A stretch of 64,000 nucleotides of DNA, taken from the sequence record NC_022968.1; one strand, 5' to 3'. Source of the DNA: Escherichia phage 4MG. Within the stretch, counting starts at the first letter, position 1. The number at the start of each line of letters is the position of its first letter. Made by a program: the position numbers and the translations under genes. Positions 5,105-9,511 of this stretch are shown in pieces. Under the pieces are notes generated by a model. It was not told where the DNA came from. It did no database searches and saw only the letters and a program-made list of their open reading frames with translations.

Positions 5105-5284
5105 ATGCAGGTTGAAGACTTTACTGACCTGAGCAAGGTTTCCACAGAGAAACTACTAAAGCTGCGTGATGTGGCTCGTGACTATCACGACGAGATGCAG
5201 CAAGCAGAGCTTGAGGCATGGAATCGTTTGAATGATATCGAGAATGAATTGAAGGAGCGGAAGAATGCTGAAAAAGCTGTTTAA
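5105..5284 (+). CDS. small hypothetical protein (59 aa)
   Basis: ATG preceded by GAAGGAGA SD; not in ORF track because <60 aa; overlaps next gene start by 20 nt. Confidence 0.35.
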   Translation: MQVEDFTDLSKVSTEKLLKLRDVARDYHDEMQQAELEAWNRLNDIENELKERKNAEKAV

Positions 5285-5588
5285 TTGGCTATTTGCCAAA
5301 GAGGATGAATCCCCTCAGGGTGTTCGTGTATATGACTTCACCACCCGTGGTCCTGGTAATGACATCACCCTTCGTGTGATCGGGGATGGTGAGTATGCTG
5401 AGGCAGTTGTTTTCCTCGACATGGGGGCTGACGCGCCGGAAGTTGGTGACTTTATCGTTGTCGATCTGAGTGATTCTAAATCTACAGAAGACCTGACAGT
5501 TACCTTTGTGGTAGATACTACCGAGCCTGTTGCTCTTGGCATCACGCAGTTAACAATGTCCCGTTACGAGGGTGCTGAAAATGCATAA
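5265..5588 (+). CDS. hypothetical protein
   Basis: 107 aa ORF, AAGGAG SD. Confidence 0.5.
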   Translation: MLKKLFNWLFAKEDESPQGVRVYDFTTRGPGNDITLRVIGDGEYAEAVVFLDMGADAPEVGDFIVVDLSDSKSTEDLTVTFVVDTTEPVALGITQLTMSRYEGAENA

Positions 5589-6072
5589 AGAACGTTCAAT
5601 TGAGAAGCTCCGCGAAGACTTGGAGCGCCTCGCAAAGGATGCAACTCAGGGACAGTGGTGGATCGACTCTCACGGTCATTCTATGGTGGCGTTCTCCGAC
5701 GATAAAAACATGGAGACTGTCTTCATTACCGACCCGAACATGGGTCCAGCGGTACGCCATGCGAGCACAGGAAACCTGTCTCAGTGGAATAACGATGTTG
5801 ATGCAACATACATCGCCACAGCTTGTCCTGAGAACATTCTTCGCCTGCTGAAGGAGTTAGATTCTCGTGTCAGCCAAAGCAATGCGTGGAAGTCTGTTAG
5901 CTCTTATGTGAAAGATGGGCTTGATGGTTACGGTAAAGAGGTTAAAGACCGTGTAAGCGATGAGCTTAACCGTAATGGCTGCAACAGTGCAGCAACTCAC
6001 ATGATTTACTTCATCAAGGCATTGATCGAAGAGAATGAACAACTGAAGTCTGATCTGGAGATGGCAATATGA
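5581..6072 (+). CDS. hypothetical protein
   Basis: ORF track 5572..6072; ATG at 5581 overlaps upstream stop; start uncertain. Confidence 0.5.
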   Translation: MHKERSIEKLREDLERLAKDATQGQWWIDSHGHSMVAFSDDKNMETVFITDPNMGPAVRHASTGNLSQWNNDVDATYIATACPENILRLLKELDSRVSQSNAWKSVSSYVKDGLDGYGKEVKDRVSDELNRNGCNSAATHMIYFIKALIEENEQLKSDLEMAI

Positions 6073-6350
6073 TTAAACCGCAGAAGGTAGAGATTGAATT
6101 TGAATACGACCATCCTGATCAGGGCGCGGTGGTGGTTGAAGCACTTTATACTGTTCAGAAGCCAGACTTCTACAGTAAAGAGAGCGACTGGGACTATAAT
6201 GGTTTTCAGGAGTTAGAGTATTATGCTGTATTCAAAAGCAACTCCCAGATCTACGTTGACATTCCAAATAATGTCCTGTACCATCACCTACGTGAACATC
6301 TGCGTAATGCAGAAATTGAAGGTTGTTTCGAACGAGAGGAGAGCTTTTAA
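6069..6350 (+). CDS. hypothetical protein
   Basis: 93 aa ORF, ATGA overlap with upstream gene. Confidence 0.5.
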   Translation: MIKPQKVEIEFEYDHPDQGAVVVEALYTVQKPDFYSKESDWDYNGFQELEYYAVFKSNSQIYVDIPNNVLYHHLREHLRNAEIEGCFEREESF

Positions 6351-6631
6351 TGGCTGGAAAGAATACCGTCCGTCTTGTTGAATTCAAAATCAGCGAACGG
6401 GAGAAGGCAGATATCGAAGCTGAACTGGCTGATCTACTGGACGAGGGTTTCACCATTGCATCACAGCACGAAGCTGATGGGTATTTGAACTACACCCTGG
6501 TGCGAACCACGCACAATATCAACATGTTGATTGGTGGTGAAACGGATCATCAAACCCGATCACCTCAGCAGAAATACAAGCTTGAGAACGGCGCTGTTGT
6601 TCCTGTAAACAGCGGTAATGTTCTTCATTGA
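6350..6631 (+). CDS. hypothetical protein
   Basis: ATG at 6350 (MAGKNTV...) inside track ORF 6323..6631. Confidence 0.5.
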   Translation: MAGKNTVRLVEFKISEREKADIEAELADLLDEGFTIASQHEADGYLNYTLVRTTHNINMLIGGETDHQTRSPQQKYKLENGAVVPVNSGNVLH

Positions 6632-6641
6632 TGGAGGTTGA

Positions 6642-7334
6642 TTGACAAAGAAGATCATAATTCTTTATGATTACACCTCGGTAATGGCACAGCCCTGGTT
6701 AAGGGCTGGCTATGAAGTCTGGACTTTTGATGGTCAACATTCCCCCGGCATTCACCGAGAGGGTAACCTGGTTAAGGTTGGTATGTGGTTCTTCCACGAC
6801 AAAACCAACGAGCAGGCATCAGAGATCGCAGAGATGGTTGGTGAAGGTGTTCACCTCGTCTTTGGCTTCCCAGAGTGTACTCACCTAACCAATGCAGGTT
6901 CAAGACATTGGGCTAAAAAACGCGCCGCTAACCCAAACTTCCAGAAGGAAGCAATGGAGTTATGCCTGCTTGTAGAGAAATTGGGTAATGAATGCGGCGT
7001 TCCTTGGGCTTTTGAGAACCCAGTAGGTGTTCTTTCCTCGATGTATCGCAAACCAGATTACATGTTTGATCCAAAGGATTACGGCGGGTATCTTCCTCCC
7101 GATGACGTACACCCTTTATATCCGCATGTATACCCTCCACAGGACGCGTACAACAAGAAGACATGCATTTGGATGGGTAATGGTGCAAAACAGCCTACAA
7201 AGCTTCCTGTGAAGGAATTGCACAAAGATAATCCCGGATGGAGAAAGTGTGGTGGCAAGTCTATCCAGACTAAAAACATCCGTAGCTGTACGCCTCGTGG
7301 TTTCGCAGAGGCTTTCTATCAAGAAAATAAGTAG
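6642..7334 (+). CDS. DNA cytosine-5 methyltransferase-like protein lacking the glycine-rich AdoMet motif I
   Basis: 230 aa; TTG start after GGAGG; motif IV-like FGFPEC (PC Cys), motif VI-like FENPVG (ENV), C-terminal TPRGF (TPRE..GFP-like); no FxGxGG. Confidence 0.45.
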   Translation: MTKKIIILYDYTSVMAQPWLRAGYEVWTFDGQHSPGIHREGNLVKVGMWFFHDKTNEQASEIAEMVGEGVHLVFGFPECTHLTNAGSRHWAKKRAANPNFQKEAMELCLLVEKLGNECGVPWAFENPVGVLSSMYRKPDYMFDPKDYGGYLPPDDVHPLYPHVYPPQDAYNKKTCIWMGNGAKQPTKLPVKELHKDNPGWRKCGGKSIQTKNIRSCTPRGFAEAFYQENK

Positions 7335-7342
7335 GAGGGTAG

Positions 7343-7489
7343 TTGAAAAATGTACAAATCCTTCAGTGCCGTGACATCAAGGATCTTGAAGATCGGCTGA
7401 ATGCCTATTTTGAAAAGGGTTACCACATTAGTGGTGGGATCACCGTTGACGGTAATTGGTATGTTGCTGTTGTAGTTAAGCCATTCTAA
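7343..7489 (+). CDS. small hypothetical protein (48 aa)
   Basis: TTG start 4 nt after GGAGGG; fills gap between flanking genes; below ORF-track size cutoff. Confidence 0.3.
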   Translation: MKNVQILQCRDIKDLEDRLNAYFEKGYHISGGITVDGNWYVAVVVKPF

Positions 7490-7495
7490 GGAGAG

Positions 7496-9511
7496 ATGAT
7501 GGGAAATGGTCCGGATTGGGCTGCTTACCGACAAGGTGGACAGGAGAACCCGAAAGCACAGAATTTTGGAAGTAAAGGCAATCGTGGAGGAAGAGTGAGT
7601 TATCAGCAACGTGAAGAAGAGACCCTGGAATCTGTAGTCAATGGCACCCGCATTCTGCCAGTTCCTGAAATGAGTCTCTCTCTCGACGCAGCAAAATATT
7701 TTAAGATCCGTTCGTCTGTGTCCCCAAGCGACGGTGTAACGATCACCGCAACCTATTTGCCATATTATGACAAGTACGGTAAGCTCACGGGATACAAAAA
7801 ACGTGACTGGACTTTGCCAAAAGAGAAGAAAGGTCACTTCTCTGTGGTGGGAACGGTAAAAGCCGCCTCCCAGTTCTTTGGTCAACATGAAGCCGCTATG
7901 GGCGCAGGTCGTAAGCAGATCTTTGTCGTAGAGGGTGAAGGGGATGTTACCGCTGGCTGGCAGGCAGGTTTTGAGTTTGTAAAGGCTCTGCAAGCAAGCC
8001 CTAATGCACCGAAGGGTGTTAAGGATTGGGCTACAAGCGTTCTGAAAGGGATCACCTCTATCCAGAATGGTGAAGAAGTTGCAGGTGTTCCGACATTGCC
8101 GTTTGTCGGATTAAACTGTGGTACAGCTAACGCAGTGGATACATTTGCCAACAACGAGAAGTTCATCCGTGGATATGAAAAGGTTGTTCTCGGTTTCGAT
8201 AACGACGAAGCGACGGCTCTTGAGAAGGAACGTAAGGTCAAGAAAGGTAAGGAAGCAACAGATGATGTAGCGGCGTTTCTGCTGACAGACAACATCTTCG
8301 TAGCCCGTTACCCTAACGAGCGTAACGACCCCTCTGGTGTCAAAGATGTCCGTGACATGTATGATGCTGGGAAGGGACGTGAAATCTGGAACATGTTCTC
8401 CAAGGCAGAAGACCGCTATGTCCCTGACAAGCTGATCAGCCTGAGCAACATTACCATCGAAAATCTTCGTAAGAAGAAGAAAGATGGTGTTCCATTGCCG
8501 GGTATGCCTCGTCTTTACGAGCTAACCAAAGGTCCTCGTACCGGGGAGTTGTGGACTCTGACAGGTCCTTCTGGTGGTGGTAAGTCAACCATCTCCCGTA
8601 AGATCGAGTATGCTATCGTTAACTACCTTCGCGATATGAGCATTCCTCGTCTTGATGGTTGGACGGAGCATGAGAAGGTTGCGATCATTCGTCTGGAAGA
8701 GGATGAGGAAGAGTCTGTTAACAGCTTGTATGCTGAAGAGTTGAAGGTTGACCCGAAAGCATTCGTTGCAGACCCTGAGCAGTTCTTGACTGAAGAGCAG
8801 CACCTTGAGATTCACCAACGCTGGATCAAGGAAGATAAGATCAAGATCTTCGATCACTTCGGCTCCATCCCTACGGATCAATTGATCCAGAAGTTGAAGC
8901 AGATGGTATTCCTTGATGGTTGTAAGTGGATTATCCTCGACCACCTGAGCATGGTGATTTCTGGTCTTAAGTCAGATAACGAACGTCGAGATCTGGACAA
9001 CATCATGACCGAGCTTGCTGCATTCTGTAAGCAGTACGATGTGTTCATTCTCAGCATTAGTCACATGAAGCGTAAAGAACTTCAACTACCGAAGGACAAA
9101 GACGGCAACATGTTGCCTTTCTGGTATCCTGTACGTAAAGAAGATCTCCGTGGTTCTGCCGCACTGGAACAGCTATCCTGGATTGTATTGGGTGTTGAAC
9201 CAGAAGAACTTCCAGACCGCTCTCGTGGACGTGTGCGTGTGGTTGTAATGAAGAACCGCCCACACAAAAAACTTGGTGTCGCAGACACTATGATCATGGA
9301 CGAAAACGGACAATTCACTGATGCGTCTGGTTGGGTATGGGAAGATGGGATGTTTAAACTTGATGGTGCGGTTATGCTTCGCCCTGAGGGTATGATTCAA
9401 TCTCTGCAACTTGAGACCCCGGTAGGTAAGGTCAATGTACCAGCACCTGTCGCTGAGGCTCCTGTTCAACTTCCTAATCCACAGGACTTTGATAACGATA
9501 CCCCGTTCTAA
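7496..9511 (+). CDS. DNA primase-helicase (Toprim + DnaB-like helicase, T7 gp4-like organisation)
   Basis: 671 aa; Toprim-like GFDNDEA; Walker A GPSGGGKST; Walker B IILDHL; C-terminus DFDNDTPF resembles SSB acidic tail. Confidence 0.8.
   Translation: MMGNGPDWAAYRQGGQENPKAQNFGSKGNRGGRVSYQQREEETLESVVNGTRILPVPEMSLSLDAAKYFKIRSSVSPSDGVTITATYLPYYDKYGKLTGYKKRDWTLPKEKKGHFSVVGTVKAASQFFGQHEAAMGAGRKQIFVVEGEGDVTAGWQAGFEFVKALQASPNAPKGVKDWATSVLKGITSIQNGEEVAGVPTLPFVGLNCGTANAVDTFANNEKFIRGYEKVVLGFDNDEATALEKERKVKKGKEATDDVAAFLLTDNIFVARYPNERNDPSGVKDVRDMYDAGKGREIWNMFSKAEDRYVPDKLISLSNITIENLRKKKKDGVPLPGMPRLYELTKGPRTGELWTLTGPSGGGKSTISRKIEYAIVNYLRDMSIPRLDGWTEHEKVAIIRLEEDEEESVNSLYAEELKVDPKAFVADPEQFLTEEQHLEIHQRWIKEDKIKIFDHFGSIPTDQLIQKLKQMVFLDGCKWIILDHLSMVISGLKSDNERRDLDNIMTELAAFCKQYDVFILSISHMKRKELQLPKDKDGNMLPFWYPVRKEDLRGSAALEQLSWIVLGVEPEELPDRSRGRVRVVVMKNRPHKKLGVADTMIMDENGQFTDASGWVWEDGMFKLDGAVMLRPEGMIQSLQLETPVGKVNVPAPVAEAPVQLPNPQDFDNDTPF

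Follow-up and report, generated by a model that had tools for sequence, protein, structure and literature searches.

A putative short Dcm-like cytosine C5-methyltransferase with a glycine-free motif I in Escherichia phage 4MG

The gene and its limits

The stretch of Escherichia phage 4MG DNA analysed here (64,000 nucleotides of sequence record NC_022968.1; hereafter the window) carries a gene for a protein of 230 amino acids (aa) that resembles Dcm-like C5-methyltransferases (Table 1). An earlier note, made from the letters alone, had drawn attention to this open reading frame (ORF) because its product combines segments arranged as in cytosine-5 methyltransferases, i.e. FGFPEC, FENPVG and TPRGF, with an unusually short chain and a missing cofactor-binding motif I. 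The ORF and the three segments are present as described (residues 74-79, 124-129 and 217-221, respectively), and the shortness is genuine.

Over positions 6000-8000, the window shares 96.8% DNA identity with Enterobacter phage EC152, a Seunavirus of the Vequintavirinae, and 88-92% with Escherichia phage LNA4, Cronobacter phage GAP31 and Salmonella phage 40. In EC152, the corresponding protein has the same length, is 99.6% identical and is annotated as 'methylase'; GAP31 and other Seunaviruses likewise have this gene labelled as a methylase or a DNA methyltransferase.

The limits of the gene bear directly on its missing motif I. A TGA at 6639-6641 lies in frame and abuts the TTG start codon at 6642, and the N-terminus, MTKKIIILYDYTSVMAQPW, lacks FxGxG. 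Because of the in-frame TGA directly upstream, no choice of start could expose a hidden FxGxG. In addition, the 14 codons before Met15, which encode TKKIIILYDYTSV (KKKVIILYDYTSV in Klebsiella phage KP12), are kept in nine Seunavirus orthologues with differences that are synonymous, which argues that the glycine-free N-terminus is translated and under selection. The adjoining stop codon and the 14 conserved N-terminal codons thus rule out a conventional motif I displaced by the start choice, a possibility that the earlier note had raised against itself, and the absence of a canonical motif I is confirmed.

Three Seunavirus GenBank records start the gene at Met15 (651 bp; positions 672-1322, 862-1512 and 865-1515 of the respective stretches), which cuts off strand beta1 and the motif I loop. 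The TTG start and the 14 codons 5′ of Met15 are conserved in these records as well, so the annotated genes probably begin too late. As a separate observation, a strong sigma-70-like match (TTGACA, 18 nucleotides, TATGAT; 11 of 12 positions) lies at 6642-6671 on the + strand, starting exactly on the TTG codon and ending 13 nucleotides 5′ of the Met15 ATG. The region contains as many sigma-70-like sites as chance alone would give, and coding also constrains the hexamers of this match.

Table 1. Features of the methyltransferase gene and of the genes downstream of it; positions refer to the window.
Feature	Position	Strand	Remarks
Shine-Dalgarno-like GGAGG	6633..6637	+	4 nucleotides 5′ of the TTG start; read from the sequence
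Coding sequence, short Dcm-like C5-methyltransferase	6642..7334	+	230 aa, TTG start, TAG stop; ORF list
Degenerate motif I, L8-YDYTSVMAQP-W19	6663..6698	+	End of strand beta1 and cofactor loop; column statistics, hhalign
Asp30, end of strand beta2, probable motif II acidic residue	6729..6731	+	Would bind cofactor ribose
Motif IV, F76-P-E-C79-T80, with catalytic Cys79	6867..6881	+	Cys79 = TGT at 6876-6878
Motif VI, F124-E125-N-P-V-G129 (ENV equivalent)	7011..7028	+	Column statistics
Insertion, residues 136-203, proposed minimal DNA-recognition region	7047..7250	+	Between motif VI strand and C-terminal helices
Motif VIII-like, D168-x-Y170-x-K172-K-T174-C-I-W177-x-G-N-G	7143-7184	+	Within the family-specific insertion
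Motif IX/X-like, T210-K-N-I-R214-S-C-T-P-R-G-F-A-E-A-F-Y226	7269..7319	+	Model helices at 208-214 and 219-229
Conserved 48-aa ORF between methyltransferase and primase/helicase genes	7343..7489	+	Hypothetical protein in EC152, GAP31 and PVP-SE1
Primase/helicase gene, downstream neighbour	7496..9511	+	ORF list; EC152 annotation

Family membership and predicted fold

A search of PHROGs matched the protein to phrog_757, 'DNA methyltransferase', with an E-value of 7.8e-79 (residues 1-230 against profile positions 13-219 of 247), and its architecture, a single domain of 230 aa without fused domains, is that of the PHROG 757 family. This family is large: tblastn found a homologue in 1544 phage records, mostly of phages of Escherichia, Klebsiella and Salmonella, as well as of Vibrio, Flavobacterium, Xanthomonas, Acinetobacter and Arthrobacter phages, and protein collections gave 742 matches at 90% clustering and 1154 clusters at 50% identity. 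Nearly all homologues measure 215-250 aa, mostly 225-250, and where they carry a name it is 'Dcm methylase'. The altered paralogue or non-canonical enzyme that the earlier note had suspected is thus replaced by a member of a coherent, annotated family of phage Dcm-like enzymes of 220-240 aa. In Pfam, the canonical C5-methyltransferase family PF00145 gave a weak match in five of 122 family members (best E 0.0039) and was the sole family matched by more than one of them.

An AlphaFold model based on alignment A1 shows one compact domain (predicted local distance difference test score 96.6, predicted template modelling score 0.92). When this model was compared with the PDB by Foldseek, the best 50 matches were all DNMT3A, DNMT3B or DNMT3C chains (E ~1e-6); overall, DNMT3A/B matched best, followed by other C5-methyltransferases including CmoX and M.HhaI. 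The predicted fold is accordingly that of a class I (Rossmann-like) methyltransferase, closest to the C5-methyltransferases. Matches in BFVD were phage 'DNA-cytosine methylases' of equal size.

Profile comparison with hhalign against single DNMT3A and M.HhaI sequences placed IIILYDYTSV...GFPEC of the family opposite VLSLFDGIAT...GSPC of DNMT3A (E 4.5e-5) across the N-terminal half; the C-terminal half of the DNMT3A sequence gave no alignment to the family profile. Against M.HhaI, motif IV alone aligned, with C79 on the catalytic Cys of GFPCQ (E 0.19). Since the motifs occur in the right order, the assignment to the C5-methyltransferases is secure. The fold, the Cys of motif IV and the Glu of motif VI are in place, and the likeness to C5-methyltransferases proposed from the letters holds against the objection that a methyltransferase fold might be missing.

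The same small methyltransferase fold was also seen inside large proteins of uncultured phages (BFVD A0A6J5SE15, 1397 aa, and A0A6J5NPY6, 1126 aa), with one such large protein being named 'Helicase/UvrB, N-terminal', and at the C-terminus of proteins of 401-453 aa (P0206, P0239 and P0240).

Conserved motifs and selection

Column statistics were compiled on 229 family members, with counts split into 120 close and 107 distant homologues. The family consensus of motif I reads h-h-L-[FY]-D-[YF..]-[TS]-G-x-[MA]-x-x-P-W. Its glycine, the second of FxGxG, is usual in the family (108 of 120 close and 75 of 107 distant homologues), and both glycines of FxGxG occur in only 3 of the 229 aligned sequences; all six examined phage proteins of the Drexlerviridae-type subgroup read LFDGSG. 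The 4MG protein and its clade, i.e. Seunavirus and close relatives, have Ser13 where most members have Gly. Some 35 complete sequences, belonging to a number of unrelated lineages, have a glycine-free motif I (LFDKSTLAL, LYDYTTLAL and LFNSSTYAM, among others) and keep the catalytic Cys and ENP. The glycine-poor motif I is therefore a variant that the lineage tolerates and no sign of a novel type of enzyme. Around it, Asp10, Thr12, Pro18, Trp19 and Asp30 are conserved. Asp30, which is Asp in 120/120 close and 96/107 distant homologues, lies one column from the motif II Glu of DNMT3A in the hhalign comparison.

In motif IV, Cys79 is present in all 120 close and in 102 of the 107 distant homologues. 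The family pattern is F-P-x-C-T, where x is P, E, V, D or S, as illustrated by FPDC in phage 9NA and FPSC in Webervirus. The 4MG protein has Glu rather than Pro directly before Cys79, and Pro two positions before it (FPxC). As the residue before the Cys varies across the family, PEC is not a special lesion, and the idea that 'PEC for PPC' marks a significant catalytic alteration was rejected. Motif VI is equally well kept: E125 and P127 occur in 120/120 close and 106/107 distant homologues, N126 in 120/120 and 98/107, respectively, and in alignment A1 P127 is invariant while E125 and N126 reach at least 90%. Taken together, C79, E125, N126, P127, K172 and R214 are found in 120 of 120 close and at least 98 of 107 distant homologues. 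Nearly invariant positions in alignment A1 comprise L8, G23, D30, F76, P77, C79, T80, G86, E125, N126 and P127, and, in the C-terminal part, D168, Y170, K172, T174, W177, R214, S215, P218 and G220.

The family can be divided into two groups. Group A, which combines [YF]D-x-[TS]-[GS] with FPEC, contains the 4MG protein, that of Shewanella phage X14 and 'Dcm methylase' proteins of Vibrio and Serratia. Group B, with LFDGSG and FP[P/D/S]C, contains proteins of Drexlerviridae, Vequintavirus phage ECP2303, 9NA, Webervirus and PVP-SE1. Between the 4MG protein and members of group B, the N-terminal, cofactor-binding 69 residues are the most divergent (19-26% identity), residues 136-185 and 204-230 are the best conserved (~50-60%) and residues 186-203 are variable.

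This pattern qualifies the earlier view that the protein has no recognisable target-recognition domain (TRD). A large variable TRD is indeed missing, as some 30 residues (180-210) separate the motif VIII-like strand from the C-terminal helices, but residues ~136-203 form an insertion whose first 50 residues are highly conserved. Further downstream, R214, S215, P218, G220 and A224 each reach at least 90% conservation in alignment A1, and the C-terminal segment is presumably equivalent to the 'GN/GRS' element of motif X.

Selection on the whole protein is stringent. Pairwise Nei-Gojobori ratios of nonsynonymous to synonymous substitution (dN/dS) among the nine Seunavirus orthologues range from 0.007 to 0.078, with dS reaching ~2. 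Together with the PHROG 757 match and the 742 homologues, these ratios put the feature well outside what chance would give. Invariant catalytic residues combined with very strong purifying selection disfavour a decaying or catalytically dead paralogue, short of proving methyl transfer. With these residues and this selection, and with relatives linked experimentally to 5-methylcytosine (5mC), the catalytic alteration that had been suspected from the letters loses its footing.

Characterised relatives

Experimental information on the family comes chiefly from phage K42, whose Dcm was equated with tiwna_64 through its gene length of 711 bp and the numbering C82/E128/K175/K176. Along its full length, the 4MG protein shares 44% identity with tiwna_64 (Warwickvirus, Drexlerviridae; 236 aa), the gene of which is in turn 99.3% identical to that of FritzSarasin from the BASEL collection, a 'Dcm-like C5 cytosine methyltransferase'. 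According to the K42 preprint, escape mutants of retron Ec86 map to dcm, and expression of the K42 Dcm is toxic only when the retron is present (bioRxiv 10.1101/2023.08.16.553469). The same study reports that liquid chromatography coupled with mass spectrometry (LC-MS) detected 5mC on the multicopy single-stranded DNA (msDNA) with wild-type K42 Dcm and none with C82A/E128A/K175A/K176A, and that mutating the CCTGG site of the msDNA abolished Ec86 defence (bioRxiv 10.1101/2023.08.16.553469). The residues C82, E128, K175 and K176 correspond to C79, E125, K172 and K173 of the 4MG protein, and both genes are orphans lying among replication genes; however, K42-type Dcm has LFDGSG and FPPC where the 4MG protein has LYDYTS and FPEC.

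A second relative, gp52 of Pantoea phage AAS23, is likewise 44% identical. In its description, BLASTP found no conserved domain in gp52 while HHpred linked it to C5-methyltransferases with 99.7% probability, and AAS23 DNA, which resists EcoRII, was reported as Dcm-methylated from restriction digests including this enzyme (PMC8004638). Santos et al. 2011, cited in a later paper (PMC7597861), had already described gp9 of PVP-SE1 as a putative cytosine methyltransferase. Both AAS23 gp52 and PVP-SE1 gp009 are LFDGSG/FPPC alleles, unlike the 4MG protein. The homologue in Certrevirus CB7 was named a cytosine methylase via HHpred, with the Entamoeba 5-cytosine DNA methyltransferase 3QV2 as best match (PMC7344957).

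Beyond the family, DNMT3A and DNMT3B share with the 4MG protein a small recognition region, a motif I starting with LFD-, the motif IV Cys and the 'FEN' of motif VI. They differ in that identity is 15-18%, one motif I Gly (FDGIATG) and the Pro-Cys dipeptide are present, and the chain is ~50 residues longer and oligomeric with regulatory domains. The canonical enzymes M.HhaI and E. coli Dcm/M.EcoRII (PF00145) share its Rossmann-type fold and its order of catalytic Cys and ENV Glu, and the chemistry is presumed to be the same. In contrast to them, however, the 4MG protein lacks a PF00145 match and FxGxG, has Glu rather than Pro before the Cys and ENP rather than ENV, and is ~100-250 residues shorter, without the large TRD between motifs VIII and IX. 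CmoX (PDB 8yf3), finally, is distinguished by SPPC instead of FPEC and by usually lying beside cmoA and an amide ligase, neighbours that are not annotated for the phage gene.

Two alleles at the Seunavirus locus

At this locus, Seunaviruses carry either a group A or a group B allele, which are mutually 40% identical. The group A allele is found in 4MG, EC152, GAP31, LNA4, phage 40, KE22, R7, EspYZU15 and KP12. PVP-SE1, the type phage of the genus, has at the same locus gp009 (6013-6741 of PVP-SE1 1-50000), which is 40% identical to the 4MG protein and carries LFDGSG and FPPC. A reading from megablast that PVP-SE1 lacks the gene was rejected in view of this divergent allele. Within the genus, one methyltransferase has been exchanged for another. 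Such exchanges are typical where the specificity of a methyltransferase faces diversifying pressure, and they fit functionally equivalent alleles equally well, meaning that the two may or may not share a target sequence.

Restriction sites in the window

Site avoidance is pronounced in these phages. Of the 64 six-bp palindromes, 25 are wholly absent from the window, with observed against expected counts of 0 vs ~26 for CTGCAG, 0 vs 13 for GGATCC, 0 vs 11 for CCATGG and 0 vs 24-44 for RCCGGY. Nearly the same set is absent from PVP-SE1 (1-50000) and EC152 (65000-114000), suggesting that the genus relies heavily on avoidance. Four- and five-bp sites cannot be purged in this way, which makes a methyltransferase the obvious complementary protection; the window contains 331 GATC and 111 CCWGG sites.

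CCWGG is the only five-bp palindrome that is clearly depleted, at 0.64 of expectation in the window (111 observed vs 173 expected) and 0.58-0.69 across the three Seunavirus stretches. Neither CTWGG nor CCWAG, its deamination products, is in excess in these stretches, and thus no deamination signature is seen. CCGG and GGWCC are at expectation in the window and at ~0.7 in PVP-SE1, which has the other methyltransferase allele. By itself, the depletion of CCWGG neither proves nor excludes protection of this site.

Probable function and competing explanations

Homology, predicted fold, conservation of the catalytic residues and purifying selection argue that the gene probably encodes an active orphan phage DNA C5-methyltransferase; its activity, cofactor, target sequence and role are what we infer from them and from the relatives. 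The gene would be expressed together with the replication genes of its Seunavirus phage. By analogy with studied C5-methyltransferases, the target cytosine would be flipped out of the helix into the active site, where the Cys79 thiolate would attack C6 as Glu125 donates a proton to N3; base and cofactor would be kept in position by Lys172 and Arg214. A methyl group would then pass from S-adenosylmethionine (SAM) to C5, with beta-elimination freeing 5-methylcytosine. The glycine-poor loop L8-Y-D-Y-T-S13, Asp30 at the end of beta2 and the C-terminal R214-S215 helix would together bind the cofactor, and the conserved insertion (136-203) would replace the large TRD as a minimal DNA reader.

The product would shield replicating phage DNA from restriction enzymes with short sites that cannot be purged, thereby complementing the near-total avoidance of 6-bp palindromes. 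A part in DNA modification or anti-restriction, as had been suggested from the letters, is the standard reading for short Dcm-like proteins and would apply here too. The leading guess as to the target is CCWGG/EcoRII-type sites, after the 44%-identical relatives, although CCWGG itself can be put forward only tentatively.

Several points weigh against this reading. Motif I of the 4MG protein (Y9-D-Y11-T-S13) has no Gly at either FxGxG position. Sequence searches of Pfam, NCBIfam and the PDB with the 4MG protein gave no match, in Pfam not even at E-values up to 10, and a 122-sequence family profile found no solved structure in the PDB. The characterised relatives belong to the other subgroup, with an N-terminal part of 69 residues that is only 23% identical. 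Their CCWGG specificity, as far as the two reports describe it, derives from mutation of the msDNA site and from restriction digests, in hosts with a Dcm of their own. Searches of the literature turned up neither methylomes nor biochemical results for the FPEC subgroup or any Seunavirus. Finally, protection of CCWGG would predict less depletion of this site than is observed.

The altered motif I could also reflect a reshaped cofactor pocket, in which case the protein would be an active C5-pyrimidine transferase with another cofactor or product, making, for example, 5-carboxymethylcytosine from host carboxy-SAM (Cx-SAM) as CmoX does. Cx-SAM is produced by CmoA in enterobacteria, the protein diverges most in its cofactor-binding N-terminal part, and the restriction digests of the relatives would not separate 5mC from a larger C5 adduct. 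Furthermore, CmoX has an Arg in place of the motif X Asn of M.HhaI that binds the carboxyl of Cx-SAM (PMC12783734), and the nearly invariant Arg214 in 'I-R-S-x-T-P' plausibly sits at the same position. Because the C-terminal half of DNMT3A gave no alignment, this mapping of Arg214 onto the motif X Asn/Arg goes no further than plausibility. Moreover, the product found by LC-MS on msDNA for the K42 homologue was 5mC, the CmoX signature SPPC is absent from the 4MG protein (FPEC), and in the part of EC152 that corresponds to the window neither cmoA nor an amide ligase is annotated. DNMT3A, too, has an Arg there (GRSWSVP) and uses SAM. A different cofactor or product is thus considered very unlikely. 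Loss of the motif I glycines might instead mean lost cofactor binding, leaving a catalytically dead or altered paralogue that binds DNA or protein without methyl transfer and would serve as decoy, regulator or DNMT3L-like partner. The missing glycines, the Glu in place of the Pro of Pro-Cys and the failure to match Pfam at E-values up to 10 would all fit such a protein, but the loop keeps L-[FY]-D-x-[ST], and Asp30 as well as Cys79, Glu125-Asn-Pro, Lys172 and Arg214 are kept in 120/120 close homologues, which for the latter residues would be unexpected had catalysis been lost. Since, in addition, dN/dS remains at 0.01-0.08 over the whole protein including the motif I loop, and the position before the Cys varies in a family with an experimentally active member, a dead paralogue is given little credence.

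The substrate might also be something other than double-stranded DNA, either RNA, as in DNMT2-like formation of m5C in tRNAs of phage or host, or DNA that is single-stranded or structured. The window contains 23 tRNA genes including a tRNA-Asp(GTC), the recognition region is very small, and the family's only direct product measurement, that of the K42 preprint, was made on msDNA, a single-stranded stem-loop DNA. 3QV2, the best HHpred match reported for the Certrevirus homologue, is a Dnmt2 homologue. Against such a substrate speak the carriers, most of which (Drexlerviridae, Webervirus and 9NA) have small genomes of ~50 kb; no tRNA gene was found in the whole annotated AAS23 genome or in short stretches of other carriers. 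AAS23 genomic DNA, moreover, is reported as Dcm-methylated on the strength of restriction digests (PMC8004638), and the best structural matches are DNA methyltransferases (DNMT3A/B, CmoX and M.HhaI). All in all, a substrate other than double-stranded DNA appears highly improbable. Finally, the glycine-free FPEC subgroup as a whole might be a distinct minimal C5-transferase that differs from the LFDGSG/FPPC subgroup in cofactor and product or in target, which we regard as unlikely. In the former case, host carboxy-SAM may be used via Arg214 to give 5-carboxymethylcytosine or another C5 adduct; in the latter, the target may be a very short motif of 2-3 bp or a structured single-stranded nucleic acid.

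Significance

An orphan DNA C5-methyltransferase of this kind is not new, given that a PHROG family, GenBank/RefSeq annotations, published HHpred assignments and one functional study exist. The 4MG protein belongs to a less canonical subgroup of what are very common miniature orphan cytosine methyltransferases. With neither a Pfam or NCBIfam model nor a solved structure to go by, members of the family are easily left as 'hypothetical protein' or shortened to Met15. The family suggests that a C5-methyltransferase can work with ~230 residues, with one motif I Gly or none and without the Pro of Pro-Cys, which makes it useful for defining the minimal C5-methyltransferase. Because relatives trigger retron Ec86, the gene may decide both restriction evasion and retron susceptibility in therapeutic Seunavirus phages.

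Genome context

In EC152, the methyltransferase gene is flanked by small hypothetical genes on one side and by the primase/helicase and DNA polymerase genes on the other, with rIIA/rIIB and a helicase gene upstream. Having the primase/helicase gene as downstream neighbour places it in the replication module. No restriction partner is annotated near the gene, and the EC152 counterpart of the window has no other methyltransferase, cmoA, amide-ligase or hypermodification gene annotated.

Upstream of the methyltransferase gene, two ORFs of ~90-110 aa (5265-5588 and 6350-6631) are labelled 'DNA ligase' in several GenBank/RefSeq records; they are the counterparts of GAP31_262 and GAP31_260 and also of SP40_63 and PVP-SE1 gp006/gp008. 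A ligase would be far longer, and the label has probably spread from record to record as annotation noise. The 23 tRNA genes of the window are clustered at 60264-63824 on the - strand, and one of them (tRNA-???, 62264-62333) has a two-base anticodon.

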